Below, in pieces: positions 1 through 38,239 of a stretch of DNA of 64,000 bases; within the stretch, counting starts at the first letter, position 1, and each line of letters begins with the position of its first letter. Source of the stretch: Candidatus Woesearchaeota archaeon (GTDB lineage: Archaea; Nanobdellota; Nanobdellia; Woesearchaeales; UBA583); assembly GCA_027858315.1 (NCBI GenBank), contig JAQICV010000077.1, forward strand, positions 6,186-70,185. Direction: 5' to 3'. The position numbers and the translations under genes are program-made. Below the pieces are notes generated by a model. It was given only the letters and a program-made list of their open reading frames with translations. It searched no databases and was not told where the DNA came from.

Positions 1-53
1 AGTAAAATTCCCACATAATTACTTTAAATTAATTGATAATTATTATATAGGAG

Positions 54-428
54 TTAAATAGTCACAAGTATATTCTCAACTTCTTTTTTTAGATATTTAT
101 AATCAGAATTTCCAAAAGGAATACCTATTATTTTAACTAGTTTTACTTGACCAGTTTCTTGCATCAATTTAAGATAAAAACCTAAGTCTAAATCATGACA
201 AGTTAGAGAATTTGCAAGTACTAAATCATCTATTTTGTCTATTAACTTTACTTTTTTTAAACCCTTTACAACATCTAGAATTATCAATTCCTCACTTGCA
301 TTTAAAATCTCATTTGGTGACTCTGCATGAATGAATTCGAAGTCCTTTGTTTGAATTATTTTTGCTAGTTCTTTTGCTACTTCATCACCTTCAAAAAATT
401 CATTTCCAAATACAAATATCTTTCTCAT
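54..428 (-). CDS. hydrogenase maturation protease (HycI/HybD family)
   Basis: 124 aa ORF with an N-terminal 'IFVFGNE..GDE' motif and a later 'IILDVV' motif typical of hydrogenase C-terminal processing proteases. It sits in the hyp cluster. Confidence 0.5.
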   Translation of the reverse strand: MRKIFVFGNEFFEGDEVAKELAKIIQTKDFEFIHAESPNEILNASEELIILDVVKGLKKVKLIDKIDDLVLANSLTCHDLDLGFYLKLMQETGQVKLVKIIGIPFGNSDYKYLKKEVENILVTI

Positions 429-429
429 T

Positions 430-1059
430 TTATAATATAAATAAACCTTCTATAATTCCTACTTCGTAAATTAAAATAATACCTACTAAAATACTTAAAA
501 TTCCAGCAATTTTTGGAGTCCAATTATTACTTGAAATTTTATTAAATAGAAAGTATAGAACTAAACTTACACAAAACATTCCTATCATTGAACCAAATCC
601 AAAGATCAAGATATAAATTAAACCTTCTAAATTATTTTGAATGGATGTCAAAATTAAAAGTATTAAAGCTGCACTTCCTGCAAGACCATGAATCATTCCA
701 ATTCCTAAAGATTTTTTATTTGTATCAATTGATTTTAGTCCTAATTCTAATTTTTTATGAAATGAACCAAGTCCTAAAATTATTAACATAATACCAACAC
801 AAAATTCTAAAAACAATGCTAGAGTTTGTGGAAGAGTAATATTTAAGATTAAAACTAAAAATCCTACAAAAAATAAGGTTATAGTGTGTCCTACTCCCCA
901 AATTATTCCAAGTTTTAACGAATTAAAAATACTTTTCGAACTTGCAAGTAATGTATTTACTGCGACTATATGATCTGCATCAAAAGCGTGTTTTATTCCG
1001 ATAAGAAATCCTATTCCTAAAAATAAAAAAAATTCCATTAGAAAAAATATATCAATCAT
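430..1059 (-). CDS. NicO-family nickel/cobalt transporter
   Basis: 209 aa polytopic membrane protein carrying the 'HAFDADH' signature of the NiCoT/NicO family. It is adjacent to the hyp genes. Confidence 0.55.
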   Translation of the reverse strand: MIDIFFLMEFFLFLGIGFLIGIKHAFDADHIVAVNTLLASSKSIFNSLKLGIIWGVGHTITLFFVGFLVLILNITLPQTLALFLEFCVGIMLIILGLGSFHKKLELGLKSIDTNKKSLGIGMIHGLAGSAALILLILTSIQNNLEGLIYILIFGFGSMIGMFCVSLVLYFLFNKISSNNWTPKIAGILSILVGIILIYEVGIIEGLFIL

Positions 1060-1191
1060 TTTTATAAACTTTTTCTAAAATAAAAAATAAATAAAAATCT
1101 TAAAATCATAATCAATTTAGAATTTAGAACAATAAATATTTAATAAATTGAAACATTTATAATCCATTACAAGGTCTTTCTAGATACTCAC

Positions 1192-1207
1192 AAAGTTTTA
1201 TAAAAAT
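1192..1207 (+). promoter_or_regulatory. TATA-like box upstream of hypF
   Basis: 'agttttataaaaattg' lies about 25-35 nt upstream of the ATG at 1229, consistent with an archaeal TATA box and a leaderless mRNA. Confidence 0.3.
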
Positions 1208-1228
1208 TGTAAATAATTATATATTAAG

Positions 1229-3415
1229 TTGTATAGAATTAGAGTTTTTGGGATTGTGCAAGGTGTAGGATTTAGACCTTTTATTTATAATGAAGCTATA
1301 AAAAACAATATAAAAGGAACAGTTCAAAACACTGGAGATGGTGTTGAAATTATTTGTAATAATAAAGAATCAATATTAAGGATTTTGAAAACACCTCCAA
1401 AGCTTTCAAAAATTGAAAAAATAAAAATTGAAGAAGTTTTAAATTTGCCTGATTTTAAAGATTTTAAAATACTTGAAAGTGAAACTAGTAATTCTTACTC
1501 TCCAATTCCTGCTGATTTAAATTTATGTTCAGATTGCATTAAAGAAATGTTTGAAGTGAATAATCAAAGGTATAAATATTTTTTCATTTCATGTATTAAT
1601 TGTGGACCGAGATATTCTATAATAAAATCAACACCATATGACAGGAAGAAAACTACTCTAGATTTTTTTAATATTTGTAAGTTTTGTAATGAAGAATTTA
1701 AAGACCCTACAAATAGAAGATTCCATGCACAAACAATTGCATGTCCTGATTGTGGACCTCAACTTTCTTTGTACAAAAATGGAATTAAGATTGAAGGTAG
1801 TTGCCCAATAGAAGAAGTAGCTAAATTAATTAATAAAAATGAAGTTGTTGCTATTAAAGGAATAGGAGGATTTCACCTTGCTTGCTCAATTGAAGATGAA
1901 GCAATTTTAAGATTGAAGAAAATAACTCAAAGATTCCATAAGCCTTTTGCACTTATGGTAAAAAATGTTGCAATGATTGAGGGGTATGCAAAAATTAGTA
2001 AAAATGGACTTGAGCTTTTACAATCAAAAGAGAGGCCAATTGTTCTTCTTGAAAAGAAAGACTCAAATATTCTAAAAGAGATAAGTGAATTATCTAGTCT
2101 AGGTTTTATGCTACCTTATTCAGGAGTTCATTATTTATTATTTGAACATCTTGATTCTCCTATTGTTTTAACATCATCTAATTTGCCATCTTTCCCAATT
2201 ACCACTAAAAAAGAAGAGCAATTTACAGATTATGTCTTAGATTATAATCGAGATATTTCAAATAGTGTTGATGACTCAATTATTAAAGTAATTGGAAATG
2301 AAAAACTGATAATAAGGAGAAGTAGAGGATTTGCACCAAATGAGATTGAAATTCCTAAGAACTATCTAAATTTTTCAGAAGATATTTTAAGTGTGGGAGC
2401 TGAACTGAAGAATACTTTTTGTATTAAAAAAAATGATAAATTAATTCTCTCAGAACATATTGGAAATACTTATAATTTGGAAAATTTTGAAAACTTCAAA
2501 TCTAGAATTTTTAAGTTAATGGAATTTACAAAGTCCACCCCAAAAATAATTTTGAGAGACTCAAATGTAAACTTTAATACTTCACAATTTGCAGAAGAAT
2601 TTTCAAAAGAGAAAAATATTGAACTATTCAATATTCAGCACCATATTGCTCATGGTTTTTCTGTTGCACTTGAACATGATTTGAAAGATTTTTTAGCTAT
2701 TGTTTGTGATGGTTTAGGGCTTGGAGAGGATGGGACTGCTTGGGGAGGAGAAGTATTTCATAATGATAAAAGAATTGGACATTTAGAATATCAAAGTTTG
2801 GTTGGTGGCGAGATAGCAAATAAAGAACCTAGGAGAATCTTAGTTGGGATTTTAGCTAAATTTATGAAACTTAATGAGATTGAAAAAATATTAGGTGAGA
2901 GTTTAGAAATTAAAACTTATTTTGAACAAAAAAAACAAAATTTTAATTGTGTTGAAACTTCAAGTGTTGGAAGAATCCTAGATTGTGTTTCTGTTCTTTT
3001 AGGATTCTCAGATAAGAACTATTATGAAGGTCGAGGCGCTATGCTTCTTGAGTCAAATTCTAGTTCAAAAATTAAATTATTTTTTGAACCAATTATTGAA
3101 AAAGAAAATAATTTATTTATTTTGAAAACTACTCCACTATTTGAATTCATCAAAAATAATCTTGATAAAATATCAAGAGAAGAACTTGCTCGTTTCGCGC
3201 AGATTTATATTGCAAAAGGATTATTTGAGATTGCGAAAAAATATGATGAAAAATTGCCAGTAGTTTTTAGTGGAGGGGTTGCATATAATGAAATAATAAC
3301 CTCATTTATGATTAAGAATAAAGTATTGTTAAATAAAGATATTCCTTGTGGTGATGGAGGAATTAGCGCAGGACAAATTGCATACTTTTTATGGAAAGAG
3401 AAAAATAAAAATTAA
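1229..3415 (+). CDS. hypF: [NiFe]-hydrogenase maturation carbamoyltransferase HypF
   Basis: 728 aa ORF with an acylphosphatase-like N-terminus (VQGVGFRPF), two CxxC-x18-CxxC zinc fingers, and YrdC-like and Kae1-like domains. Confidence 0.9.
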   Translation: MYRIRVFGIVQGVGFRPFIYNEAIKNNIKGTVQNTGDGVEIICNNKESILRILKTPPKLSKIEKIKIEEVLNLPDFKDFKILESETSNSYSPIPADLNLCSDCIKEMFEVNNQRYKYFFISCINCGPRYSIIKSTPYDRKKTTLDFFNICKFCNEEFKDPTNRRFHAQTIACPDCGPQLSLYKNGIKIEGSCPIEEVAKLINKNEVVAIKGIGGFHLACSIEDEAILRLKKITQRFHKPFALMVKNVAMIEGYAKISKNGLELLQSKERPIVLLEKKDSNILKEISELSSLGFMLPYSGVHYLLFEHLDSPIVLTSSNLPSFPITTKKEEQFTDYVLDYNRDISNSVDDSIIKVIGNEKLIIRRSRGFAPNEIEIPKNYLNFSEDILSVGAELKNTFCIKKNDKLILSEHIGNTYNLENFENFKSRIFKLMEFTKSTPKIILRDSNVNFNTSQFAEEFSKEKNIELFNIQHHIAHGFSVALEHDLKDFLAIVCDGLGLGEDGTAWGGEVFHNDKRIGHLEYQSLVGGEIANKEPRRILVGILAKFMKLNEIEKILGESLEIKTYFEQKKQNFNCVETSSVGRILDCVSVLLGFSDKNYYEGRGAMLLESNSSSKIKLFFEPIIEKENNLFILKTTPLFEFIKNNLDKISREELARFAQIYIAKGLFEIAKKYDEKLPVVFSGGVAYNEIITSFMIKNKVLLNKDIPCGDGGISAGQIAYFLWKEKNKN

Positions 3416-4401
3416 CAAATTCTAGGAACTATTTTTCCTGAAGGCATTTGAAGAATTCTTGAACCTAAAGATGTTTTTAAAATTACTTTTCCTTGCTTGT
3501 TTGAAGTAGATTTTACTTCCCCGATTATTTGCGCCATTTCGTTAAACTTTTTTAATTCCTCCAAAACCTTATTTGAATTATTCTTACTTACAATAGTTAT
3601 AATTCTTCCTTCGTTTGCTAACTCTAGAGGATCAAGTCCTAAAAGATTACATGCAGTTCTTACCTCTTTTTTTATAGGAATTTTTGAGTCTTCAAGTTCT
3701 ATCTCGATTCCTTTTTCATTTGATACTTCATTTAGAACTGATGCAATACCTCCTCTAGTTGGATCTTTTGCAAATTTAATTAAGTTTCTAATTTTTTTCA
3801 TTTCAAGATATATTGATTTTGAGTCAGAGATTATTTGTGTTTGAAAATCAAACCTTTGAGACAACAATGCTACAGCATGTTCACCAATACCTCCAGAGAT
3901 TATAATTTTATCTCCAGTTATAATTTCTTCATCTATTATTTTTTTAGTAATACCTACACCTGAAACATTTATTACAATTTTATCTATTGCTCCTTTTTCC
4001 ATAACTTTTGTATCACCAGTTACAATTGGAATTTGTTGTTCTTTTGAGATTTTATTTATTGACCCCATTATTTCATTTAGAGTTTCTATATCAAATCCTT
4101 CTTCGATGATTAAAGACAATGAAAGACCAACCGGGTCAGCGCCCATAACTGCTAAATCATTTATAGTACCACAAATTGCTAGATGACCTATATCTCCTCC
4201 GGGAAATTTTATAGGATTTACTACAAAACTATCAGTTGTAAAACAAAGTGTATCTTTATTTGGAAGTTCAAATGTTGCAGAGTCGTTAGTAAAATTTTCC
4301 CATTTATCTCCTCGGTATAAATTACCTAAAAATGAATTCAATAAATCGTTCATTTCCCTTCCACCATTTCCTTGTTCTAAAGATATATTCTTTTTTTCCA
4401 T
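3412..4401 (-). CDS. hypE: hydrogenase maturation factor HypE
   Basis: 329 aa ORF with the PurM/AIR-synthase-like fold and the HypE-specific C-terminal PRIC motif. Confidence 0.9.
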   Translation of the reverse strand: MEKKNISLEQGNGGREMNDLLNSFLGNLYRGDKWENFTNDSATFELPNKDTLCFTTDSFVVNPIKFPGGDIGHLAICGTINDLAVMGADPVGLSLSLIIEEGFDIETLNEIMGSINKISKEQQIPIVTGDTKVMEKGAIDKIVINVSGVGITKKIIDEEIITGDKIIISGGIGEHAVALLSQRFDFQTQIISDSKSIYLEMKKIRNLIKFAKDPTRGGIASVLNEVSNEKGIEIELEDSKIPIKKEVRTACNLLGLDPLELANEGRIITIVSKNNSNKVLEELKKFNEMAQIIGEVKSTSNKQGKVILKTSLGSRILQMPSGKIVPRIC

Positions 4402-4403
4402 TT

Positions 4404-5411
4404 TTATTTTACATATTTAAACGCAATCCCGCATGCGCCTTCAGTTTCTGAAACCATGCATGCTCCAATTGGATTTTGAGGAGTGCAAACTTTGCCAAAT
4501 AATTTACAGTCTTTTGGTTCACATAATCCTTTAATTATTTCACCACATCTACAAGCAGGGTTTGAAAATGATTTTACATTTTTTAATATGTTTGCATATT
4601 TTATTTTTGCATTGATTTTATCATTTTTTGGTTCAAGACCTGAGTTTTTTAAAATCCCCAAACCTCTCCATTCCGAGTCGATAAGTTTCATGTTATCTCT
4701 TATAATCTTTCTTGCTTTAGGATTACCATCTTCTTTAACAACTTCAGTATAATCATTTATTACCTCATTTTTTCCTTCTTTGATTAGAACTAATAATTTA
4801 TATATTCCTCTTATGATTTGTTCTTTTTTAAAACCTGAGATTACTTGAGGAACTTTTAATTCATCAAATACCTTACTACCAATTATACATGCAACATGTC
4901 CTGGGTCTATGAATCCATCAACCTTTGTTTTTGTAGTTATTTCTCTCATTGGAGGAGGCATAATTTTATGAGCAGAATATACACAAATTCCTTTTTCTAA
5001 AAGATAAGCAGTCATAGGAGTTGTTGTTTCAAAACCAATTCCAAAAAAAACTCTATGTTTATTTTCATCTTTTAACATCTCAGTTGCAGTATAAATCATC
5101 TTCACATCTGCTCCAAGAGATTTTGCTTTTGCAAGCGAGAGTTTAGTTCCTGGAACATGCATCATATCTCCATAAGAAGCAACAGGTATTCCACTATTTG
5201 CTAGAGCTATCATATTATCTATATCTTTTTGTGATGTTACACATACAGGGCATCCTGGCCCAGAGATTAAATGAATATTTTTTGGAAGAATATCTCTTAT
5301 TCCATATTTCATAATAGTATTTGTATGGCCTCCACAAACTTCCATTATAGTTATTGTTCTATTATCGAATTCTTTTGCAATTTCTTCTATTTTTTTTAGG
5401 TAAATATTCAT
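4404..5411 (-). CDS. hypD: hydrogenase maturation factor HypD
   Basis: 335 aa ORF with the CGGHT and GPGCPVC motifs and C-terminal cysteine clusters. Confidence 0.9.
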   Translation of the reverse strand: MNIYLKKIEEIAKEFDNRTITIMEVCGGHTNTIMKYGIRDILPKNIHLISGPGCPVCVTSQKDIDNMIALANSGIPVASYGDMMHVPGTKLSLAKAKSLGADVKMIYTATEMLKDENKHRVFFGIGFETTTPMTAYLLEKGICVYSAHKIMPPPMREITTKTKVDGFIDPGHVACIIGSKVFDELKVPQVISGFKKEQIIRGIYKLLVLIKEGKNEVINDYTEVVKEDGNPKARKIIRDNMKLIDSEWRGLGILKNSGLEPKNDKINAKIKYANILKNVKSFSNPACRCGEIIKGLCEPKDCKLFGKVCTPQNPIGACMVSETEGACGIAFKYVK

Positions 5412-5614
5412 TCTTCATCATATAATAAATTATACATACCTTCTGCTTGTTTCTTATCTACTACTTCAATTGCAAAGCCAACATGAACTAGAACATAATC
5501 ACCAATTTTACATTCTATGAAAGAAACATTTGCCTCTTTTTTTATCCCACCATAATCAATTATGGCATTCTCGCCATTAATTTTTTCAATTTTACCTGGA
5601 AGAGCTAAACACAT
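5408..5614 (-). CDS. hypC: hydrogenase maturation factor HypC
   Basis: 68 aa ORF starting MCLALPGKI. It overlaps the hypD start. Confidence 0.85.
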   Translation of the reverse strand: MCLALPGKIEKINGENAIIDYGGIKKEANVSFIECKIGDYVLVHVGFAIEVVDKKQAEGMYNLLYDEE

Positions 5615-5669
5615 ATATTATTTAAAAAGAATTGAGTATATAAAGTTTTTCCACACGAACCTTGCAGCA

Positions 5670-6856
5670 TTATTCTTTTTTCCAAATATCTTTCATGATT
5701 AATTCTTTTAGATCTTTGTCATTAAAGTATTCACCATTTCTATGATTATATTCTGTTTCAACTTCAACTAAAGAATATGAAATTTTATTATTGATTTTTT
5801 CAATCAGATAACCTTTATTTCCAACTGCTCTAATTAGTGGTGTATCAAAAGGAGTTTTCATTTCATATGTTGTGTGAAGATGACCATCAATTGTAATTTT
5901 TGCTAAAGATGATAGCATTGCTGCAACATAGAGTGTAGGCATTTCATTTGCCTGCCTATCATCACGCCAAGCGCCTTTCCCTATTTGTCCATGTGTTAAA
6001 AATAAATCTAAGTTATCAGTATTATTTGGCATTATTCTTATCCAATCCATATCGTCTTTAATTTCTGATTCTTGAAGTTCTTTGGAAATATTTTTGAACA
6101 GAATTCTTCTATCTTCTCCTCTTTGATGTGAAAACATTTCATTTAATTCTTCTTCAGAATATATCTCTGAAAGAAATGGCAATAGAGCATTCACATTACT
6201 TACTGCGGCAGTTTTAATCCCATTAATATCTAATACTCCTTTTTCTTTTCCTAAATCTGAGATTAGTGATTTATTTTCTAAATATTTTTGAATTAGTTCA
6301 GGAAAATAAATTGGTTCATGGTTGCCATTTAGAAAATATGTTTCTACTTTGTATTTATCTATTAATTCTGCAAGTTTTTTGCATGTTCTTTTATTACTAC
6401 ATTATAGAGCGCTCTTAATTTAATTTTGTGATTTGAAATTATGTATTTTACTTCTTTTTCTATTTTAGAATTTGTATCTTTTAATTTATTTTGAAACTCT
6501 TTAGATTCAATAATTTTTACAATTGAAATAAGTTGCTCTTTAGCCTCTTCTTTTTGCTCTTAAGGTATTTGTTTGAGAAGTAAATCTATTCTTCCACCTG
6601 CTTGAGCAATTTGCTGATATGTTGCATAGGATTGAATTTCCTCAGAGGTTAGTAGTTCATTTGGTTTTTCATTAGTTATTTCATAAGGAAATTTTAAGTC
6701 TAATGATTTAGCAAGTTCTTCAAAATTATAATCACCAATCACATCACCATTTATTACGAATGGAATTTTGTTAATTTTTGCATACTCGAAAAGCTTTTCT
6801 AAAGCTTCCCAATTTGCATGATGATCAGAACTTACAAGAAGTTTGTTTTTATTCAT
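5670..6856 (-). pseudogene. disrupted calcineurin-like metallophosphoesterase (Mre11-like)
   Basis: The N-terminal piece (6560..6856) has the SDHH and GDVIGD motifs. The C-terminal piece has GNHE and GHLH motifs, in an open frame from about 6410 down to 5670. The two pieces are in different frames and separated by stops. Confidence 0.5.
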
Positions 6857-6911
6857 ATTTATTTTTCTAAAAGATTATTTATATTAGTTTGTAAAGAATT
6901 AGAAAAAAGAA

Positions 6912-7280
6912 TTACTCTTCTTCCTTAGCTTCATCTTCATATTCTGAGTCGTACTCTTCATCAACTTCTACTTCTTTTAGAGTTATATCTTTACCATCTA
7001 AAATTGTAGGAAGAGATTGGGCGCATTTAGGACATTCATAAATATTATTATCATGTAATTGTTGTAGAATTTTTGGTTCTCCTGTATATCCACATTTACA
7101 ACTAATAGTTGCTTTTTTTGAAATTACTTCAATTTTCCAATCTGTTAATTTCTCCATTACTTCTTTCATTTCATCTGCGGGAAGATGACCTAAATCTCCT
7201 ACTTCGATTGTTAATGACTTTACTTTTCCATAAGTATTTGCATCAGCAATTATTTTTTGTGCTATTGTTTGTTCATGCAT
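6912..7280 (-). CDS. hypA: hydrogenase nickel-insertion factor HypA
   Basis: The protein starts MHEQTIAQKII and has CxC...CxxC zinc-finger cysteines. The likely start is the internal Met of the 6912..7301 ORF. There is an unusual acidic C-terminal tail. Confidence 0.7.
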   Translation of the reverse strand: MHEQTIAQKIIADANTYGKVKSLTIEVGDLGHLPADEMKEVMEKLTDWKIEVISKKATISCKCGYTGEPKILQQLHDNNIYECPKCAQSLPTILDGKDITLKEVEVDEEYDSEYEDEAKEEE

Positions 7281-7398
7281 AATAGTTTGTAAAAAAAACA
7301 TTATTTAAATCTTTCGAGTAATACTAGACAATAAACAATAATTTTCTACTCCAAAAAGATGAATAAATGTTAATAAGTATATATTATAAAAATTATAT

Positions 7399-9132
7399 AT
7401 GAGTCTAAATAAAATCTCTATTAAAATAGGAGGTCCTGCAGGGTCTGGAGTTTTTACAATTGGTCTTTTGCTTTCGAAATATTTTCAAAGAGCAGGATTA
7501 AATGTTGTATATACTACTGATTATCCCTCTCTAATCAGAGGAGGACATAATACTTGCTGCGTTAGAGCAGAGAATGAAGAAATTAATGCTGAAGTTTTGA
7601 ACCATGATGTTTTAGTTGCACTTGATGATTTAACAATCACTGAAGATTTGAAACAATTAAACAAAGGAGCAGTTTTAATCTGTGATACAAAATCTACTTT
7701 TGAATCAGCAGATTATCAAGTTCTAAAAGTTGATTTTGATAAATTACTTGATGGAATGGATAAAAGATATTTCAATACTATTGCTTTTGGTTGTGTTATT
7801 GGTTTAATGGGTGAGGATGGAGATATGCTGAGAGATGCACTTGCAACTCATTTTAGAAAAAAATCTCAAGAAGTTGTTGAAGAAAATCTGAAAGCTGCTC
7901 AAGTTGGATACGATTTTGCAAAAGAGTTCTGTGTTCAAAATAATACTGGATTTTTAGGAAGAATTACTAAGACACAAAATTCTTTAGGAAATACTGTTTT
8001 TATGTCAGGAAATGATGCTGCTTGTGTTGCTGCTGTTAAAGCTGGAGTTAAATTTGTTGGAGAATATCCAATGACACCTTCTACTTCATTTTTACATTAC
8101 ATGGCTGCTCATGAATTAGATTACAATATTACAACAAAACAAACTGAAGATGAAATTGCTGCAATTAATACGGCAATTGGTGCTAGTGTTGCAGGAGTTA
8201 GGGCAATGACTGCTACTTCAGGTGGAGGTTTTGCATTAATGAATGAAGCTATTGGTTTTGCAGCTATTGCTGAAGCGCCAGTTGTGGTTTTTGAGTGTAT
8301 GAGAGGAGGTCCTTCAACTGGAATTCCTACATATACTGACCAAGGAGATTTGAAATTTGTAATTAATTCATCACAAGGAGAGTTCCCTATGGTTGTTTTA
8401 GCTCCAGGAGATATTGAAGAATGTTTTGAAGAGAGTTTTAATGCATTTAATTTAGCAGATATTTTACAAACACCAGTTATTGTTTTATTAGATAAACATC
8501 TTGCTGCATCTCATTTTACTGCTAAAAGATTTGATACTTCTAAATTAAAAGTAGATAGAGGAAAATACATCAATCTAAGTGATGAAGTTTTAGCTAATAA
8601 TAAAAGACATGAATTTACAGAGGATGGAATCTCAACTAGATTCAATCCAGGTCAACCTGGTGGTATATATACTAGTTCATCTTATGAACATGATGAAACT
8701 GGGTACACTTGTGAAGATTCTGAAAATCATGTAAAAATGATGGAGAAGAGGTTTAAGAAGTATGATGCAATTCCTAAAGAATTGTTAAGACCTAAGATGT
8801 ATGGACCGGAAGATGCTGATTTAACTATTGTTGGTTGGGGATCTACTAAAGGTGTAGCATTAGATGCAATTAAGTACTTGAACTCTGATGGACTTAAAGT
8901 AAACTATATGCATTTTGTATACATCAATCCTTTTGATAATGAAGAAGTTAAGAGTATGCTTGATAGTTGCAAAGATACAATTATTCTAGAAGCAAATTAC
9001 ACTGGACAATTAAGAGATATTATTAGAGAGAAAACTGGTTTCTACATCGAGAAGACTTATTTCAAATATGATGCAAGACCATTTTATTTTCAAGAAGTCT
9101 ACACTAAGATTAAGGAGGTATTGAAAAAATGA
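7399..9132 (+). CDS. 2-oxoacid:ferredoxin oxidoreductase, fused gamma/alpha subunit
   Basis: 577 aa ORF with an N-terminal gamma-like domain and an alpha-subunit transketolase-like domain. It overlaps the beta-subunit gene by 4 nt. Confidence 0.85.
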   Translation: MSLNKISIKIGGPAGSGVFTIGLLLSKYFQRAGLNVVYTTDYPSLIRGGHNTCCVRAENEEINAEVLNHDVLVALDDLTITEDLKQLNKGAVLICDTKSTFESADYQVLKVDFDKLLDGMDKRYFNTIAFGCVIGLMGEDGDMLRDALATHFRKKSQEVVEENLKAAQVGYDFAKEFCVQNNTGFLGRITKTQNSLGNTVFMSGNDAACVAAVKAGVKFVGEYPMTPSTSFLHYMAAHELDYNITTKQTEDEIAAINTAIGASVAGVRAMTATSGGGFALMNEAIGFAAIAEAPVVVFECMRGGPSTGIPTYTDQGDLKFVINSSQGEFPMVVLAPGDIEECFEESFNAFNLADILQTPVIVLLDKHLAASHFTAKRFDTSKLKVDRGKYINLSDEVLANNKRHEFTEDGISTRFNPGQPGGIYTSSSYEHDETGYTCEDSENHVKMMEKRFKKYDAIPKELLRPKMYGPEDADLTIVGWGSTKGVALDAIKYLNSDGLKVNYMHFVYINPFDNEEVKSMLDSCKDTIILEANYTGQLRDIIREKTGFYIEKTYFKYDARPFYFQEVYTKIKEVLKK

Positions 9133-10052
9133 ATGAAGAAATAAAAATTGAAGATGTGAATTTTGTTGGAGGAGATAATCTTAAATTTAGCCTTTTAGAT
9201 TTAGATTCTAAGCATGAGAGTCAATGGTGTCCTGGTTGTGGAAATTATGGTATTGTTATGGCAGTCAAGAATGCAATTCTTAAATTAGGTATTAATCCTA
9301 AGGATGTTCTAATTGTTTCAGGAATTGGTTGCGCTTCTAAGTTCCCTCATTATTTGAAAACTTATGGGATAGAGACTATTCATGGAAGAGCACTTCCAGT
9401 TGCAACTGGAGCTAAACTTGCAAACAAAGATTTACATGTAATTGTTGTTGGTGGAGATGGTGATGGTTATGGTATTGGTATGGGTCATTTAATGCATACT
9501 ATGAGAAGAAATATTAACATTACTTATTTAATTAATAATAATGAGATTTACGCTTTAACTAAAGGTCAAACTTCTCCAACTACACCTAAAGGAAAGAAGA
9601 CTGCTTCAACTCCTAATGGTTCAATTGAGACTCCAGTTAATCCAATGGCTCTAGCTATTGGTGGTGGTGCTACTTTTATTGCAAAGAGTTTTAGTGGTGA
9701 TATTAATCATATGAGCGATACTATTGCTCGAGCAATTGCTCATAAGGGTTTCTCAATTATTGATATTGCGCAAATCTGTGTATCATTTAATCCTTCAATG
9801 AATTTTAAATGGTATAAAGATAGAATTTATAATATTGATGATTTACCTGATTATAATAATAAGAATAAGTCTTGGGGTATGATTCATGCTCTTGAGAGTC
9901 AAGATGATAAGATTGGAATTGGAATATACTATCATAATGATGATGACAGAGAAACCTATATTGATGATCTGCCAGAAGATGAAAAATTATCTCTAGTAAG
10001 ACAAGATATAAATGATATTGACATTGAAAATATCCTTGATAACTACGAGTAG
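9129..10052 (+). CDS. 2-oxoacid:ferredoxin oxidoreductase beta subunit (TPP-binding)
   Basis: 307 aa ORF with the WCPGCGNYG motif and a GDG thiamine-diphosphate-binding motif. Confidence 0.85.
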   Translation: MNEEIKIEDVNFVGGDNLKFSLLDLDSKHESQWCPGCGNYGIVMAVKNAILKLGINPKDVLIVSGIGCASKFPHYLKTYGIETIHGRALPVATGAKLANKDLHVIVVGGDGDGYGIGMGHLMHTMRRNINITYLINNNEIYALTKGQTSPTTPKGKKTASTPNGSIETPVNPMALAIGGGATFIAKSFSGDINHMSDTIARAIAHKGFSIIDIAQICVSFNPSMNFKWYKDRIYNIDDLPDYNNKNKSWGMIHALESQDDKIGIGIYYHNDDDRETYIDDLPEDEKLSLVRQDINDIDIENILDNYE

Positions 10053-20603: not shown

Positions 20604-21140
20604 TTATTTTTTAGTATATTTTAAAATAACAATTCCTTCTTGAATAGTAGATTCCTCTAGATGTAATTTTATATTAGGATTGTTTTCTAAAAATAATCTT
20701 CTTCCTGAACCTAAAATGGTCGGGATAATACCAATAATATAATCATCTATTATCTCTGATTTAATAAATGTGTCAGTTAAACCAGCTCCCCCATATAACC
20801 AAATATTTTTCCCATTTTCTTTTTGTAATTCTAATATTTTATCTACAATATTTTCTTTTCTGAATTCAACGTCTTTGAGTTTCGATTTTAATTCTTTTGA
20901 TGTTGCAACATATACTTTTTTATCTTTAAACATTTCAATTGATTCTTCAGGAATATCTTCATATGCTTTTCTTCCCATAACTACTGTATCAATAGAATTT
21001 AAAAACTCTTCAAAATTAAATTTTTTATTAGTATCATGGCTCTTATCTGCATCTCCGACTATCCAATCAAAGCTTCCATCTCCTCTTGCAATATAACCAT
21101 CTAAACTAATTGCTAGATTTAGAATTATTTTTCTTGACAT
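20604..21140 (-). CDS. RibD C-terminal domain / dihydrofolate-reductase-like protein
   Basis: 178 aa ORF with ILNLAISLDGYIA and GDGSFDW. A second, disrupted paralog lies at 37563..38105. Confidence 0.65.
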   Translation of the reverse strand: MSRKIILNLAISLDGYIARGDGSFDWIVGDADKSHDTNKKFNFEEFLNSIDTVVMGRKAYEDIPEESIEMFKDKKVYVATSKELKSKLKDVEFRKENIVDKILELQKENGKNIWLYGGAGLTDTFIKSEIIDDYIIGIIPTILGSGRRLFLENNPNIKLHLEESTIQEGIVILKYTKK

Positions 21141-21190
21141 AATATAGATAATGTTATCAGAATTTATAATCTTATCTTTAGAAAATTATT

Positions 21191-22402
21191 AAGCCCTCCG
21201 ACCGGGAGTAGTTTAATGTTAGAAATACAAGATATCAACAATAAAGAACTAAATACGTTGATATTAATAAATTTTAAAACTTAAATAAAAGTTCACCTCC
21301 TTTAATTAGGTGACTACAAAAATGAAAAATGAAAAAAATGTAGTCTCCTATTTCAAAGTTTTCTTGTACTGCTTTATTAAAAACTGAATTGTTGGTTTTA
21401 AATTGTTATTTTGAGAGTATTCTCTTAAAGAGAAGTAATACTCTTGTCTATCTTCTAAAAATATGTTAATTGGAGGATAATTATTTTTTAATAATATGTA
21501 ATTTAGTAATAATCTACCAACTCTGCCATTTCCATCTTGAAATGGATGAATATGTTCAAATTGATTATGGACTAGGGCTGCTAAGATCAGAGGTTTAAAG
21601 TTATTCTTATTCTCATTATACCAATGTATAAATTCGTCCAATTCTTCTTTTAATTGTGAGACAGGTGCTCCTTGATGAATGATATCACCTTGATTATTTT
21701 TTATTACAACTTCAACATCCCTTAACTTCCCTGCAAATCCTTTTGAACCTTTAAAACAAATTTCATGTAATTTTAATATTAAATCTAAAGAAACATCATC
21801 CTTGCAAGTGTTAATGAAATCTACGGCCAATCCAACATTAATAGTTTCTAGTTCATCTTTAGTTTTAGGTAAAGTTTTCTCTTCAAGTAAATCCTTAACT
21901 TCATCTTCAAGAACAGATGAACCTTCAATTGCATTAGTATTATATACGAAATCTTCTTTAAATTTCTCAAATTCTGAATTTTGAAGATGAATTATTTTTA
22001 ACTTAGAATCATATTTATTTAATTGATTAATTTGAGAAGAAGATAAAAAAAAATTAAAGACTTCTGTTTTTAACTCTTCAATTTGTTCAAGAATTATTTG
22101 CTGTGCCCTAGATTTATTTTTTTCTAAATCTTTTGCAGATAAATTTTGTCCTAGATACCTAGAAATTTTTTTTACTTTATCATTATCTCTATAAGAATGA
22201 GATAAATAGTATTTTATATTTTTTCCAGATTTTCTTTTTTCTACAAACATAGTAATAATTAGGTGACTACAATTTATAAATATATCTTCTTATGTAGTCA
22301 CCTTTCTTAAAATTTAGGTTCACCTCCTACCAAAAGTCAAGAATCTAGAAAATACATAATACGGTTCGCCTCCCGCGTTTTTTAAAAGCCCTCCGACCGG
22401 GA
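21191..22402. mobile_element. ~1.2 kb tRNA-Glu-associated cassette carrying a Fic gene, flanked by a 17-bp direct repeat of the tRNA 3' end
   Basis: 'aagccctccgaccggga' occurs at 21191-21207 and again at 22386-22402, inside the tRNA. Internal repeats: 'aggtgactaca' at 21308 and 22261, its inverse at 22293, and 'gttcRcctcc' at 21291, 22318 and 22364. Confidence 0.6.
21348..22250 (-). CDS. Fic-family protein (AMP-transferase), class II with inhibitory TxxxEG helix
   Basis: 300 aa ORF with the Fic motif HPFQDGNGRVGR and an upstream TNAIEG inhibitory motif. Confidence 0.85.
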   Translation of the reverse strand: MFVEKRKSGKNIKYYLSHSYRDNDKVKKISRYLGQNLSAKDLEKNKSRAQQIILEQIEELKTEVFNFFLSSSQINQLNKYDSKLKIIHLQNSEFEKFKEDFVYNTNAIEGSSVLEDEVKDLLEEKTLPKTKDELETINVGLAVDFINTCKDDVSLDLILKLHEICFKGSKGFAGKLRDVEVVIKNNQGDIIHQGAPVSQLKEELDEFIHWYNENKNNFKPLILAALVHNQFEHIHPFQDGNGRVGRLLLNYILLKNNYPPINIFLEDRQEYYFSLREYSQNNNLKPTIQFLIKQYKKTLK

Positions 22403-22463
22403 TTTGAACCCGGGTCCCCGGCTCGAAAGGCCGGAATGATTGGCCGGACTACACCATCGGAGG
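22389..22463 (-). tRNA. tRNA-Glu (anticodon UUC)
   Basis: Cloverleaf with anticodon loop CTTTCGA, T-arm GGGTTCAAATCCC and a 7-bp acceptor stem with C1:G72. No encoded CCA. Confidence 0.85.
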
Positions 22464-22557
22464 ATTATATAGAAATAAACCTTTTATTTGTCCGTTTGTT
22501 ATAATTAAAAGGAACTAATTTCCCTTTAAAAAGTTTTTTGTAAATTCTAGCGGCCCC

Positions 22558-22632
22558 AGGGAGATTCGAACTCCCGATCCACAGCTTAGAAGGCTGTTAT
22601 CATATCCAGGCTAGACCATAGGGCCACAATAA
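22558..22632 (-). tRNA. tRNA-Arg (anticodon UCU)
   Basis: Cloverleaf with anticodon loop CTTCTAA and T-arm GGGAGTTCGAATCTCCC. Confidence 0.8.
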
Positions 22633-22736
22633 TATTAATTAATTAAGATTGGATTATAAAGTTTATTATTTAGTTCAAGCTAAATAATGACCAAAAATCT
22701 TAAAGAAGATTTTTGATTTATTATAAAAAAACTTTA

Positions 22737-23399
22737 TTATTCAGTCTTTGTTTCAGCTTTTAATTCAGCTTTTGCTGCAGCAGCTGCTGCTGCTGCTGCT
22801 TTTTGTTCTGCTTCTTTTCTATCAATTTCTGCATTAGTTTCTAATTCTGCTTTAGTTAATTTTTTAACTTTTTGAATAGTGGAATGAGTAGTTGTTCGAA
22901 GTGTTAGTTTTGAAGAACCAACTCTTAAAGCTTCTCTTCCAAAGATCTCTTCTCCTGCAGGTAAAAATAATTCGAAAATTACTTTTCCTTTATGTACTTG
23001 ACATGCAGTACCAATAGTTTTACCAAAACTGTGTTTCATACCTGTTGAAAGCCTATCTGCTCCTGCTCCTGCAGCAAGAGGATTCTCTCTTAAAGTATGA
23101 TGAGGCACAGCTTTAATTCTAAAGTAAAAACCAGATCTACCATATTTCTTTTCAATTCTTCTTAAAACTGCAATTCTTGCAGCTTCAATTGAATTAGTTC
23201 TTACTTGTGCATCATCTTTTGAAATTAATTGCAATTTTACTGGAAAATTATCTGATTGAACTAAATTACCCATATCAAACTTAATAATCTTTTTACCAGG
23301 TCTTGCTTTAACAAAAGCTTTCTTCCTATATTTTGAAAATCTAGTGTAAGGTCTCTCTAGTTTTCTATAAGCGGTCCATTTTCTAAGCTTTGTTGCCAT
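22737..23399 (-). CDS. rpl10e: ribosomal protein L10e (uL16) with C-terminal Ala/Lys-rich extension
   Basis: 220 aa ORF with the N-terminal RPYTRFSKY..KIIKFDMGN motif. The C-terminus includes an A9 run encoded by (GCN)9. Confidence 0.85.
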   Translation of the reverse strand: MATKLRKWTAYRKLERPYTRFSKYRKKAFVKARPGKKIIKFDMGNLVQSDNFPVKLQLISKDDAQVRTNSIEAARIAVLRRIEKKYGRSGFYFRIKAVPHHTLRENPLAAGAGADRLSTGMKHSFGKTIGTACQVHKGKVIFELFLPAGEEIFGREALRVGSSKLTLRTTTHSTIQKVKKLTKAELETNAEIDRKEAEQKAAAAAAAAAKAELKAETKTE

Positions 23400-34961: not shown

Positions 34962-35636
34962 TTAAAGATAATCTAAACTCTCAACAATATTTTGAATTTC
35001 TACTGTTGAACTCATCGTACCAATAATTAAACCAAAACTATTCCCTACTACTCCTGATGCAATGTAATAACTTCCTTGATTTATTGTTCCAACTCCACCA
35101 ATTTCTTTTAGAATAGGTTTAACTTGATCTTCTTCATATTCTTGAGAGAAGAAGTATTTATTATTCATAAATCTACATGTAGCTCCAATTGATTTGAATA
35201 TAGGATTTTCAATTCGAATGATTTTGTATTTAGTTTGTTTCTTGATTTCAGATTCAAACTCTTCTGAGTATTCAAAATTAATTAAAATTTTTCCATTACC
35301 TACACAAATATTGCTTCCATAAGTGTTTTGTAAGTCTTTAATTACAATTAATTTTACTTCATGAGTTTTACAGATTTCTTCTAATTCTTTTTGTTCATAT
35401 TCATACATTGAAGGAACTATTAAAATTTCAGTATTTCCTGAAATAAATAGGCCAATTAATTCAGTTCCTAAAACTGATACAGTGTACACAGGCACATTAA
35501 AAGTTTTTTCTATTTCTTTCTTTTTTTCATCAGAAATCTCATGTCCAATTAAACAAAATTTGTCATTAACAAACATATAAATACCAATATTTGGGTTTCC
35601 ACCAAAATCCATTAAATTAACATTTTTTTTAACCAT
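34962..35636 (-). CDS. translation initiation factor aIF6
   Basis: 224 aa ORF with the characteristic repeated alpha/beta eIF6 pattern and N-terminal GNPNIGIY. Confidence 0.7.
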   Translation of the reverse strand: MVKKNVNLMDFGGNPNIGIYMFVNDKFCLIGHEISDEKKKEIEKTFNVPVYTVSVLGTELIGLFISGNTEILIVPSMYEYEQKELEEICKTHEVKLIVIKDLQNTYGSNICVGNGKILINFEYSEEFESEIKKQTKYKIIRIENPIFKSIGATCRFMNNKYFFSQEYEEDQVKPILKEIGGVGTINQGSYYIASGVVGNSFGLIIGTMSSTVEIQNIVESLDYL

Positions 35637-35731
35637 TTTTTAATTTTATATATTAATAAGAATAAATATGAATTAATAAACTTGATTATTATAATCATAA
35701 TCTTTATTAACAATTAAATATAATAATAATT

Positions 35732-36208
35732 ATGGGTACATGTGAGCTTTGTGGGAAAATTGTAGACACGACTACAACTGTTAAAGTTGCTGGTTCTAAT
35801 ATGCAAGCTTGTGGCAAGTGTAAAGCGCTTGGTTCTGAGGTTAATAGGGAAAGTCCAGCATCTCTTTCCCATTCATTTAGGAAGAGAACAAAAGAAGGAA
35901 GTGTTGAAATGGAAGTTATTTCTAATTATGCTCCAGTTATTAATTCTGCACTTGCAAAGAAAGGTTTAAATATACATCAATTGGCTAGGATGTTAAATAT
36001 TAAAGAGAGTACTTTGAATAAATATTTTACAGGAAAGATCAAACCTGATGTTACTGTAGCTAGAAGACTTGAAACTTTTTTTGAAATTACAATATTAGAA
36101 TACAGAGAAGCTCAAGATTTAGGTGATGTAATGGTAAATGAGGAATTAGACAATAAACCTATGAGTCTAGGTGATATGATTAAGAAACAAATGGAGAATA
36201 AGAAATAA
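35732..36208 (+). CDS. archaeal multiprotein bridging factor 1 (MBF1), Zn-ribbon + HTH
   Basis: 158 aa ORF with CELCG..CGKC at the N-terminus and an XRE-type helix-turn-helix at the C-terminus. Confidence 0.6.
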   Translation: MGTCELCGKIVDTTTTVKVAGSNMQACGKCKALGSEVNRESPASLSHSFRKRTKEGSVEMEVISNYAPVINSALAKKGLNIHQLARMLNIKESTLNKYFTGKIKPDVTVARRLETFFEITILEYREAQDLGDVMVNEELDNKPMSLGDMIKKQMENKK

Positions 36209-36211
36209 ATA

Positions 36212-37276
36212 ATGGCTTTTGATTTAATTACAATTATAAATTACCAGGTTGGTTTGAATGAAGTTTGGAGATATCTAGTTTTTTTAATAGCTCTATTAAT
36301 GACATATCCTTTAGGAAAACTTATCATATATATTTTACAAAATTATTTAAAGAAATGGGCTACCAAAACTGCTTTTAAACTTGATGATATATTTTTCAAC
36401 AGTATTAATCCTTCAATTACGATGTTTGTATTTGCAGGACTATTTTATTTTGGTTCTAGTGTTTTAAATCAAGGTCAATATGCACCAGTCTTCACAAAAG
36501 CATTCAATTTTTTCATTATAGTTCCTCTAGTTTATTTCTTAATTAAGTTTTCAACAGAGATGATTGGATTTTATTTGAAAAGCGATAAGAAAAGAATCAA
36601 TGAAGCAGGAATTGATTTGCTTATGCAAATTGTAAGAATTACATTATTTTTAATTGGTATATTGTTAGTACTTGGAAATTTGGGATATAATGTTTCAGCA
36701 GGATTAGCAGGACTAGGTGTAGGAGGTTTGGCATTTGCTCTTGCAGCTCAAGATATTCTAAAAAACTTCTTTGCAGGAGTCTCTTTAGTATTTGATAAAA
36801 CTTTCAATAAAGGAGAGAGAATTCAATTTCAAGGAGTTACTGGAAAGATTGAAGAGTTAAAATTAAGATCTACAAAGGTTCGAACTTATGATGGAACTTT
36901 AATGACTATTCCTAATGCAATGCTTGCTGATAATATGGTTGAGAATGTAACAAAAGTTCCAAAAGTTAAAGTTAAAATGACAATTGGAGTTGAGTATTCA
37001 ACTTCTGCAACTAAATTAGAAGAAGCTAAAAAGATTATTCAAGAAGCAATTGACTCAAATGAATATGCAGATGCTGGAAATCATGATGTTTGGTTTGATA
37101 ACTTTGGAGCATACTCATTAGATCTTCAAGTAATCTATTATGGAAAACTAACTATGGATGATTGGAGTAAAAGAGTACAATTCAAAGATGAAATTAATTT
37201 TGCAATTAAGAAAGGATTTGAAAAAGCAAAAATCAGTATGGCATTCCCAACTCAAACAATTGAGTTGAAAAAATAA
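36212..37276 (+). CDS. MscS-family mechanosensitive channel
   Basis: 354 aa ORF with transmembrane helices followed by the MscS hallmark GVTGKIEELKLRSTKVRTYDGTLMTIPN. Confidence 0.8.
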   Translation: MAFDLITIINYQVGLNEVWRYLVFLIALLMTYPLGKLIIYILQNYLKKWATKTAFKLDDIFFNSINPSITMFVFAGLFYFGSSVLNQGQYAPVFTKAFNFFIIVPLVYFLIKFSTEMIGFYLKSDKKRINEAGIDLLMQIVRITLFLIGILLVLGNLGYNVSAGLAGLGVGGLAFALAAQDILKNFFAGVSLVFDKTFNKGERIQFQGVTGKIEELKLRSTKVRTYDGTLMTIPNAMLADNMVENVTKVPKVKVKMTIGVEYSTSATKLEEAKKIIQEAIDSNEYADAGNHDVWFDNFGAYSLDLQVIYYGKLTMDDWSKRVQFKDEINFAIKKGFEKAKISMAFPTQTIELKK

Positions 37277-37321
37277 AATAAAAATATTTATAAACTCCAT
37301 ATCATTATTTTATATATTCAA

Positions 37322-37393
37322 GCTCCTGTAGTACAATGGCTAGTATCCCGGCCTTCCAAGCCGGTGATCTGGGTTCGAATCCCAGCAGGTGCA
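37322..37393 (+). tRNA. tRNA-Gly (anticodon UCC)
   Basis: Cloverleaf with anticodon loop CTTCCAA and T-arm CTGGGTTCGAATCCCAG. There is one T:T mismatch at acceptor position 3. Confidence 0.75.
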
Positions 37394-37562: not shown

Positions 37563-38105
37563 TTAGATTTTTTTATTATATCTTAAAATGATGACTCCTT
37601 CTTTTAGTGTAGATTCTTCTAGGTGTAATTTTATTGTAAGATTATTTTCTAAAAATAATTTCCTACCACTTCCTAAAATAATTGGAATAATGCCTAGAAT
37701 ATATTCATCTATAATATTTGCTTTAATAAATGAATCCGTTAATCTTGCTCCACCATATAACCAAATATCTTTGCCTTCTCCTTTTTTTAATTCTAATATC
37801 TTATTACAAATATCTTTTGATATAAATTTAACATCTTTAAGTTTTGATTTCAATTGTTTAGATGTTGCAACATATACTTTTTTACCATTGAACATTCTAA
37901 TTGATTCTTCAGGAATATCTTAATATGCTTTTCTCCCCATAACTACAATATCAATAGAATCGAAAAAAATTTCAAAATTAAATTGATTTTTTGTATCATG
38001 ACTTTTATCTGAATCTCTAACTATCCAATCAAAGCTCCCATCTTCTCTTGAAATATAACCATCTAAACTAATAGCTAAATTTAAAATTATTTTTCTTTTT
38101 GTCAT
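37563..38105 (-). pseudogene. RibD_C/DHFR-like gene interrupted by in-frame nonsense codon
   Basis: Paralog of 20604..21140. Codon GAA (KAYEDIP) is TAA here at about 37916, splitting the gene into 37920..38105 and 37563..37895. Confidence 0.7.
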
Positions 38106-38164
38106 ATATAAACAATAAAAATCACAATTAAATTAATTATTGTTTGTTCTAGAAAAATATTAAG

Positions 38165-38239
38165 CCCTCTGGCCGGGATTTGAACCCGGGTCACAGCCTT
38201 GAGAGGGCTGCATGATTGGCCGAACTACACTACCAGAGG
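38165..38239 (-). tRNA. tRNA-Glu (anticodon CUC)
   Basis: Cloverleaf with anticodon loop CTCTCAA and T-arm GGGTTCAAATCCC. It is a close paralog of tRNA-Glu(UUC). Confidence 0.85.

Follow-up and report, generated by a model that had tools for sequence, protein, structure and literature searches.

Here we describe a one-gene genomic islet at the 3' end of a tRNA-Glu(UUC) gene in a Candidatus Woesearchaeota archaeon, located in a 64,000-nucleotide stretch of contig JAQICV010000077.1 that we call the window (positions are counted from its first letter). The islet consists of a Fic gene between two direct repeats that copy the end of the tRNA, it was acquired horizontally, and it carries no integrase. 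We consider it likely that it is comparable to the cis-mobilizable elements (CIMEs) of bacteria, that it entered the tRNA gene by recombination between attachment (att) sites, and that it was mobilised in trans. In related DPANN archaea the same Fic gene recurs between two conserved palindromes, at many different tRNA genes and in many different genomic contexts.

Mobile elements and integrases of DPANN archaea have been little described, and this locus offers a putatively mobilisable unit with mapped limits, a candidate helper family and an att core. A single Fic gene with fixed palindromes turns out to be a widespread, horizontally moving cassette that is more conserved than the ribosomal proteins beside it, and such spread together with such conservation suggests a toxin, defence or addiction role that matters generally to reduced, host-dependent cells. 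The locus could also serve as a compact model case for Fic autoregulation and trans-mobilisation in archaea.

Limits of the insertion and its tRNA target

The 17-mer AAGCCCTCCGACCGGGA occurs exactly at both ends of the islet (Table 1) and had no match in 100 shuffles of the window; the only other near-match in the window, with 2 mismatches, is the end of a tRNA-Glu(CUC) gene at 38162-38178. The two copies enclose 1,178 bp, so that the whole unit, with one repeat counted, measures 1,195 bp. From the tRNA coordinates given by ARAGORN and Rfam, the 17-mer spans the last 14-15 nt of tRNA-Glu(UUC) and 2-3 nt of flank. As is typical of tRNA-integrated elements, the insert is thus bounded by direct repeats identical to the 3' part of a tRNA gene that is itself intact, and none of the other five tRNAs of the window has a partial 3' copy of this kind. 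The enclosed interval has a G+C content of 25.8%, against 27.0% for the window, and an Rfam search over 21000-22700 returned two tRNAs and no other RNA. On the element side, the junction 'cgcgggaggcgaacc' is kept at four loci in other genomes, which we denote by L numbers (L088, L089, L091 and L001). Fic is the sole credible open reading frame (ORF) of the 1,178 bp, and no integrase is encoded inside the element. The first-pass annotation of this DNA had proposed two exact copies of the 17-mer, the proximal one forming the 3' end of tRNA-Glu(UUC), with a Fic gene alone between them, and the sequence check, ARAGORN, Rfam and the count of real ORFs all agree with it.

Unoccupied sites

The window itself contains an unoccupied paralogue of the target site: a second RibD_C copy with a tRNA-Glu(CUC) gene upstream of it. 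The two loci are 82% identical (495/602 nt) across the RibD_C gene, the spacer and the 17-mer, and in the next 100 nt past the 17-mer the identity falls to 30/100, where the second locus runs on into its own tRNA. The distal flank had earlier been matched to this junction over a short stretch only; the likeness extends far beyond that, to the whole gene, spacer and repeat. In another metagenome, L102 shows the uninterrupted arrangement that the first-pass annotation had proposed to look for in relatives, with tRNA-Glu(CUC), 89 nt and then a RibD_C gene 71% identical to that of the window, and nothing between. A further metagenome contig, L096, carries a cassette-free tRNA-Glu(UUC) with 100% identity over 83 nt to that of the window, and beyond this tRNA come ordinary AT-rich DNA and unrelated genes; L097 looks much the same. 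Together the paralogous junction, L102, L096 and L097 identify tRNA-Glu/RibD_C adjacency as the unoccupied state. The insertion model would have failed if the cassette stood in one position in all relatives with no empty site among them, or if the 17-mer were a chance or many-locus match. The unoccupied loci and the several flanks in which the cassette is found speak to the one, and the shuffles and the single 2-mismatch near-match to the other.

The RibD_C paralogue (37563-38105) has one in-frame TAA that replaces the GAA codon for E62 of the first copy, and is probably a young pseudogene. The tRNA-Glu and RibD_C pair as a whole (37563-38239) is thus segmentally duplicated in the window. A mechanosensitive (MS)-channel and tRNA-Gly block lies beside the second pair (35337-37393), about 12 kb off the ribosomal-protein block that the same block adjoins in L005 (36-2078). 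The breakpoints of this rearrangement between the window and L005 fall at tRNA genes.

The same cassette in other genomes

Cassettes at tRNA-Glu genes were found in at least four different flanks, with 84-89% nucleotide identity to the window and homology that ends at the repeats. Each has a distal flank of its own: RibD_C, a giant Laminin_G protein, a CTP-transferase, and Glyoxalase/DUF2200. L088, whose Fic is 95% identical, occupies the same site as the window's. In L001-L004 and L008 (Fic 91% identical) the order is a radical-SAM gene, tRNA-Glu(UUC), Fic and the giant Laminin_G protein, and in L089 and L090 (Fic 95% identical) the cassette sits at tRNA-Glu(CUC) with Glyoxalase/DUF2200 beyond. 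Homology to the window runs from 22465 to 21193 in L001 and from 22416 to 21190 in L089; in both cases it sets in at the tRNA and stops where the distal repeat has its outer edge.

L005-L007 share the gene order of the window (L31e, S19e, L35Ae, L10e, tRNA-Arg, tRNA-Glu(UUC), Fic). Between the window and L005 the four ribosomal proteins are 62-66% identical, whereas Fic is 89% identical; at the nucleotide level the ribosomal block reaches 68% and the cassette 87%. The unit was therefore acquired horizontally, and its spread from genome to genome outpaces the divergence of the core genes. The repeats, for their part, behave like att sites. The distal repeat of L001, CCCGGTTGGAGGGC, matches that genome's own tRNA allele and runs on into a degenerate T-arm. 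At the tRNA-Glu(CUC) of L089 and L090 the proximal copy reads TCCCGGTCGG... and the distal copy TCCCGGCCGG..., a hybrid pattern that would be expected if the new tRNA end came with the element and displaced the old end of the host.

Two smaller inserts were seen at these loci. Upstream of Fic in L005 (5762-5905), about 125 bp separate tRNA-Glu from a repeat of its final ~30 nt, and in L088 (about 1-120) about 75 bp lie between two copies of a tRNA-Arg end; both have the look of traces left when the same att sites took up further insertions. Among the neighbouring genes, the L10e (uL16) of the window (22737-23399) has a C-terminal low-complexity tail, ...EAEQKAAAAAAAAAKAELKAETKTE, and its alignment with the orthologue in L005 covers only about 185 of 220 residues.

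An integrase family that shares the att core

No recombinase was found within the 64-kb window by profile hidden Markov model (HMM) or Pfam, in agreement with the earlier claim that the islet has no integrase. Twenty mid-size ORFs of the window are all housekeeping genes by Pfam, and an HMM of the integrase family described below, built around the L091 type, gave no match to the window at a threshold as loose as E = 10 and none to 80 further Fic loci.

A candidate helper appears in L091, a contig without a complete tRNA whose Fic is 93% identical in protein sequence. Its order is a DNA methyltransferase, a 444-aa tyrosine recombinase on the opposite strand, a set of repeats, 'cagaCCGGTCGGAGGGCtt', the Fic cassette and 'tcCCAGTCGGAGGGCtt'. 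The repeats beside the integrase comprise three copies of GGCAGATGAAC and two inverted copies of GTTCATATCCCA, and the cassette is bounded by two repeat cores, also written 'CCGGTCGGAGGGCtt' and 'CAGTCGGAGGGCtt'. The recombinase scores 28.8 bits with Pfam Phage_integrase (cut-off 27.1), shows the motifs HSCRHSSATH...AREY and matches a PHROG integrase family. Its relatives are rare, with eight matches. The integrases of L092-L094 (67% identical) have GCCCTCCGACCGGTCTG about 235 nt upstream of the gene, and there a GGCAGATGAA repeat follows GCCCTCCGACCGGTCTG at the same 15-nt spacing as in L091, even though the intervening sequence differs. Three independent assemblies break ~30 nt past the core at integrase relatives. 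Because L091 and L092-L094 share the core beside the gene, an integrase family with this 13-nt core as its own attachment site exists. The islet, then, keeps attL and attR and is missing integration genes, and a candidate helper with the same att core exists and can sit in tandem with it, as in L091; these are the marks of a CIME. The earlier suggestion that the cassette was mobilised in trans has gained direct support from this tandem and from the relatives that keep the core by their own integrase gene.

The contigs that bear the integrase carry other genes as well. The L092 element (1-9617) encodes a serine resolvase, DndB-like and PAPS-reductase/DndD-like proteins and several large ORFs without a Pfam match, and both L091 and L095 carry an N6/N4 DNA methyltransferase. 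The integrase-bearing element (L092, L095) may be a defence-carrying plasmid or island of Woesearchaeota.

A recurrent pattern in DPANN archaea

A search for homologues of the Fic protein gave more than 6,000 matches, nearly all of them in DPANN archaea, full length and about 60% identical, and 82 loci from about 80 species were surveyed. A tRNA 3' end faces the cassette within 400 nt in 21 of the 82 loci (13 upstream, 8 convergent downstream), compared with about 2 expected and a single 5' end facing it (binomial P = 6e-14). Significant locus-specific, G+C-rich direct repeats of 14-97 nt lie near the palindromes in about 20 loci, and many of them copy the 3' end of the adjacent tRNA (Lys, Gln, Tyr, Gly, Met or Glu). 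At L025 the repeats stand 3-6 nt from the palindromes. At L100 a 45-nt tRNA-Met repeat encloses Fic and two small genes. At L098 (about 4577-6579) a 357-bp AT-rich direct repeat flanks a Fic cassette that is 73% identical, and a 42-aa remnant of an SSV-type integrase (Phage_integr_3) lies just outside the downstream repeat. A Fic gene on an islet lacking an integrase had been thought unusual; given the tRNA 3'-end bias and the flanking repeats, it is instead a recurrent arrangement in DPANN archaea.

Several of the facing tRNAs contain introns, and introns of 24-98 nt occur in many cassette-adjacent tRNA genes (L025, L033, L040, L075, L012, L014, L069). Plain ARAGORN misses such intron-bearing genes, so tRNA adjacency in DPANN archaea is under-counted unless the search is intron-aware.

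No other gene accompanies the cassette consistently. Clustering of the 659 ORFs within 5 kb of Fic at the 82 loci gave no family present in more than 7 loci and no recombinase, and Pfam annotation of the 148 nearest neighbours gave 256 families with no conserved partner, integrase or transposase among them. The most frequent were a second, different Fic paralogue (7), TrmB (6) and methyltransferases; tRNA synthetases and other core genes also occur among the neighbours. This second Fic-domain protein, with motif HIHPFSDGNSRTTR and a longer N-terminus, lies within 1.6 kb of the cassette in six species (L013, L030, L032, L035, L073 and L075), and TrmB-like regulators are neighbours in seven. The cassette itself is apparently single-copy per genome. 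In IMG/VR neither a relative of this Fic nor the att-plus-integrase pattern had a match, so there is no evidence for a viral vehicle. Some contigs with DPANN-type cassettes (L015, L031, L073 and others) are labelled Sulfurovum, Methanosarcinales, Methanocellales or Patescibacteria, probably through mis-binning or mis-classification.

Palindromes and inner repeats of the cassette

Two copies of the motif AGGTGACTACA, at 21308 and 22261, are accompanied by an inverse copy at 22293 and by a degenerate inverse one at 21339. The first-pass annotation listed all but the last of these among the short repeats of the cassette, and all of those lie where it placed them; the AGGTGACTACA copies are not incidental, however, since they form the arms of two palindromes that are kept in about 80 species. 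The 5' palindrome, which we call IR-L, holds a TATA-like TTTATAAA in its loop about 27 nt upstream of the Fic ATG, a spacing that fits the archaeal promoter of a leaderless mRNA, and IR-L is probably the promoter and operator of such a transcript. The 3' palindrome, IR-R, straddles the Fic stop codon (21348-21350); its loop is T-rich, its arm AGGAGACTACA is degenerate, and its first arm encodes a C-terminal '...EVTTK' in most homologues. The family consensus is AGGTGACYACA-N~21-TGTRGTCACCT, found at -53/-21 from the ATG in 74 of the 82 loci and around the stop codon in 60. Elsewhere in 1.0 Mb the palindrome is near absent, with a handful of occurrences. In relatives with 67-73% protein identity, nucleotide homology to the window extends exactly from IR-L to IR-R, and by this measure of conservation that segment is the core common to all versions of the cassette. 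Its palindromes accompany the gene and are not seen apart from it, which makes a cassette-encoded protein the simplest reading for what binds them, and Fic is the only candidate for this predicted binding.

Extra solitary palindromes, with an A-rich loop like that of IR-R, stand upstream of the cassette in L053 (~-219 from the start of Fic), in L052 and in L075. They may have been left behind when neighbouring Fic genes were lost or when palindromes recombined with each other.

Outside the palindromes, GTTCRCCTCC (GGAGGYGAAC on the Fic strand) occurs at 21291, 22318 and 22364, against 0.03 occurrences expected; it is confined to the cassette, and the position of its copies is kept in close relatives. 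Two of the copies belong to an inner direct repeat of 19 nt, whose copies A and B are identical at 16/19 positions. The string GGAGGTGA is found in the 64 kb only at these two copies, and the homology of the L005 cassette begins at copy B. Judged from their sequence and placement, GTTCRCCTCC and the inner repeats could either be arm-type sites or mark where an older insertion once lay. A Shine-Dalgarno reading of GGAGGTGAAC was rejected: it is not followed by a start codon, and the 64 kb contain no further copy of the 8-mer. The inner repeat GGTTCACCTCCT resembles the 3' end of 16S rRNA at 11/12 positions, which is too thin a likeness to build on.

The Fic protein

The protein has the active-site motif HxFx(D/E)GNGRxxR, in a form (HPFQDGNGRVGR) that is invariant in 17 homologues, and, N-terminal to it in the same chain, the inhibitory motif (S/T)xxxE(G/N) as an invariant TNAIEG that aligns with the TVAIEG of human FICD. 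FICD is the best solved relative (residues 100-300, 4e-33), and the PADLOC model for SoFic matches residues 102-299 at 7e-35, covering model positions 61-264/361. With the Pfam Fic match added, these motifs agree with the earlier call of a class II autoinhibited Fic. As read from its motifs, the protein would be a FICD/SoFic-like AMP-transferase held off by its own inhibitory glutamate, and it probably acts as a toxin or abortive-infection effector. AlphaFold predicts three strands and a long helix for residues 1-62 (predicted local distance difference test score 88), and in this model the topology resembles that of AP2 and integrase arm-binding domains. The N-terminal domain thus modelled probably binds the palindromes and represses the gene's own promoter.

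Table 1. Coordinates of the islet, its parts and its surroundings in the window
Feature	Position	Strand	Remarks
RibD_C/dihydrofolate-reductase-like gene	20604..21140	-	native distal flank of target site; Pfam RibD_C 9e-22
Distal direct repeat, attL-like	21191..21207	-	partial copy of tRNA-Glu(UUC) end, joined to native RibD_C-side flank
Outer right arm of cassette	21208..21282	-	AT-rich, specific to tRNA-Glu lineage; kept in L089/L090, partly in L001; missing in distant relatives
Inner direct repeat, copy A	21283..21301	-	contains GTTCACCTCC (GGAGGTGAAC on Fic strand); 6 nt outside 3' palindrome
3' palindrome IR-R	21308..21349	-	AGGAGACTACA-N20-TGTAGTCACCT on Fic strand; z = -4.0
Fic gene	21348..22250	-	300 aa; Pfam Fic 2e-22
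Fic protein parts	residues 1-62; 105-110; 235-246		N-terminal three-strand-plus-helix domain (predicted); TNAIEG; core HPFQDGNGRVGR
5' palindrome IR-L	22261..22303	-	AGGTGACTACA-N21-TGTAGTCACCT; z = -4.8
Inner direct repeat, copy B	22310..22328	-	contains GTTCACCTCC; 6 nt outside 5' palindrome
Third copy of GTTCGCCTCC	22364..22373	-	GGAGGCGAAC on Fic strand; ~10 nt from proximal repeat
Proximal direct repeat, attR-like	22386..22402	-	3' end of functional tRNA
tRNA-Glu(UUC), integration target	22388..22463 (ARAGORN); 22389-22463 (Rfam)	-	intact; Rfam 55.1 bits
Paralogous unoccupied locus	37563..38239	-	probable RibD_C pseudogene, then, upstream, tRNA-Glu(CUC) at 38164-38239

Proposed mechanism and alternative explanations

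The explanation that we find likely is that of a horizontally acquired, CIME-like islet of one gene, without an integrase, that entered tRNA-Glu(UUC) by att-type recombination and is mobilised in trans. A circular form would carry a copy of the tRNA's last 13-17 nt as attP, a crossover within the core would rebuild the tRNA from element DNA, and the host's former 3' end would stay behind as the distal partial copy beside RibD_C. The tyrosine integrase would be supplied in trans by a larger tRNA-Glu-specific element; because the recombinase comes from elsewhere, the islet would behave like a bacterial CIME and could form tandems with its helper. The two palindrome copies bracket Fic, one at the TATA box and one at the stop codon, and the Fic N-terminus would bind there and repress its own promoter. 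The junction predicted for the empty site is ...GAAAATTATTAAGCCCTCCGACCGGGATTTGAACC... and that for the circle ...CATTAAACTAC-TCCCGGTCGGAGGGCTT-TTAAAAAACGCGGGAGG....

Several observations weigh against this explanation, and a number of them favour its foremost rival, in which host machinery recombines the tRNA end by homology. Searches of JGI metagenome contigs found neither the exact empty junction predicted for this species nor an excised circle or within-sample polymorphism, so current mobility is putative. The candidate helper family is represented by five metagenome contigs, none of them assignable to this genome, and neither the window nor the DNA within 8 kb of Fic in 80 further species yielded an integrase of any kind. 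The GTTCRCCTCC copies, which the first-pass annotation took for arm-type sites, do resemble the integrase-proximal repeats, but they match GTTCATCTGCC at only ~8/10 positions, and since two of them also form part of the inner direct repeat the arm-type assignment stays hypothetical. Repeat lengths in the family span 13-357 bp, not every repeat derives from a tRNA, and the cassette stands in either orientation to the tRNA, which fits several recombinases or homology-driven insertion better than it fits one integrase. In such Campbell-type insertion no dedicated integrase is needed: a circular or linear fragment with Fic and the previous host's tRNA end would recombine with the resident tRNA, duplicating the shared segment, and tRNA ends would be favoured as the most conserved DNA available. 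The long repeats that take in non-tRNA sequence or a long tRNA flank (97 nt in L037, 92 nt in L034, 357 nt in L098) are what this predicts, as is the constant agreement of the repeat with the tRNA allele of its own locus. Homologous recombination would, however, have had very little to work with in 14-17 bp of exact identity, and homology leaves unexplained why the 13-nt core lies beside an integrase gene in two diverged lineages with flanking repeats at fixed spacing, or why the L091 cassette lies exactly between two cores. We regard homology-driven insertion as unlikely, though as the alternative to be taken most seriously.

The islet could also be an immobile fossil, all that is left of a larger integrated plasmid or virus that lost its integrase and other genes by deletion in situ and kept Fic because it was useful or addictive. 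The missing integrase in the window, the degenerate arm AGGAGACTACA of the 3' palindrome, the SSV-type integrase fragments beside the related cassette in L098 and the extra genes between the repeats of L100 and L035 would all suit such decay. What makes it improbable is that the Fic-only unit, with the same inner flanks and bounded by repeats, occurs in at least four unrelated contexts and at two different tRNA-Glu genes: independent decay in situ would not give identical limits each time. Nor does a fossil account for a cassette nucleotide identity of 84-89% where neighbouring core genes reach ~68%. A different thought is that Fic mobilises itself, its integrase-arm-like N-terminal domain binding the palindromes and Fic directing or catalysing integration into the 3' ends of RNA genes. 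The palindromes are specific to the cassette and conserved wherever Fic is, the universally conserved unit extends exactly from IR-L to IR-R, the repeats lie 3-20 nt from the palindromes in L025, L038, L072 and L066, and no other gene is common to the loci. We know of no Fic-fold enzyme that cuts or joins DNA, so this would be without precedent; the 5' palindrome overlaps the TATA box and is explained by simple autoregulation, a conventional integrase with the right att core exists, and the cassette is apparently present once per genome, all of which leaves self-mobilisation very improbable. Somewhat wider, and in our view a long shot, is the notion that the palindrome-bracketed Fic gene is a self-sufficient selfish unit of DPANN archaea, with Fic as an architectural or directionality factor or even the recombinase and the palindromes flanking the captured att core like arm sites in the circle; if true, it would explain how a one-gene element without an integrase comes to stand at many tRNA specificities in thousands of genomes and yet remains more conserved than ribosomal proteins. 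To a chance repeat beside a vertically inherited neighbour gene we give practically no credence. Close relatives do have Fic beside tRNA-Glu, yet the absence of the 17-mer from the shuffles, the empty paralogous junction, the unoccupied identical tRNAs and a Fic far more similar than the adjacent ribosomal proteins refute it, and uphold the earlier claim of an insertion at the tRNA 3' end.

Two further kinds of element were considered and rejected. A DNA transposon, insertion sequence or casposon does not fit, as the sequences just inside the 17-mers are not inverted repeats and there is no transposase; counted inwards from the repeats, the palindromes come after ~83 nt on the 5' side and ~100 nt on the 3' side, and repeat length varies from 13 to 357 bp across loci. 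An integron gene cassette does not fit either, as this one has its own TATA promoter inside the 5' palindrome and is solitary, with no array and no intI nearby.

Comparison with known systems

A tRNA 3' end is also where casposons and other tRNA-targeting transposons insert, with a duplication of ~14-17 bp as the result. The islet differs from them in having neither terminal inverted repeats at its junctions nor a Cas1 or transposase gene; the repeats of its family span 13-357 bp, and those of the window abut no fixed terminus.

In its protein, the islet recalls SoFic, a single-gene Fic system that is reported to defend against phages by abortive infection through AMPylation (PMC12249575). Both have a class II Fic core with an inhibitory helix, encoded by a single gene on mobile DNA, and the woesearchaeal protein may have a similar activity and defence role. 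The protein described here differs in lacking the C-terminal domain of SoFic, its match ending at model position 264/361, in having another N-terminus, of three strands and a helix, and in having no small downstream antitoxin ORF. Human FICD/HYPE shares the TxAIEG inhibitory motif and HPFxDGNGRxxR within the match over residues 100-300, whereas FICD has a tetratricopeptide-repeat (TPR) N-terminus and acts on BiP, and the woesearchaeal protein has a small, possibly DNA-binding one.

Among archaeal elements that target tRNA genes, SSV-type integrases split their own gene on integration and pNOB8-type integrases stay intact (PMC8371274; see also PMC7253208). Like these elements, the islet uses a tRNA 3' end as target and is flanked by direct repeats made of the tRNA end; unlike them, it has no integrase inside. 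We read the candidate helper of L091-L095 as similar to the pNOB8 type, with an intact gene and the att site upstream, and the integrase fragment beside the related cassette in L098 is of the SSV type. Neither DPANN nor Woesearchaeota nor Nanoarchaeota is mentioned in the main text of a 2021 review on the tyrosine recombinases of archaea (PMC8371274), and a full-text literature search on Fic in DPANN archaea found no description of the cassette, which is not proof of absence.

A close parallel is provided by the CIMEs of Firmicutes, which undergo accretion with functional integrative and conjugative elements (ICEs) or integrative and mobilizable elements (IMEs) and are defined in PMC5704250. 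Like a CIME, the islet keeps attL and attR without any integration genes, its target is the 3' end of a conserved gene or tRNA, and it can form a tandem with an element that bears an integrase and uses the same att site, as in L091. Successive insertions leave internal att copies in both, here in the form of the 125-bp insert of L005 between two copies of the tRNA end. The islet differs in its archaeal (DPANN) host, in its size of 1.2 kb and single gene, and in having nothing to do with conjugation; its one-gene core, moreover, recurs at many tRNAs and sites across phyla and carries its own conserved palindromes. Att-flanked islets without an integrase and tRNA-targeted elements are known kinds; what appears to be new is the DPANN setting, the one-gene format with palindromes at promoter and stop codon, and the spread over many lineages and tRNA targets.

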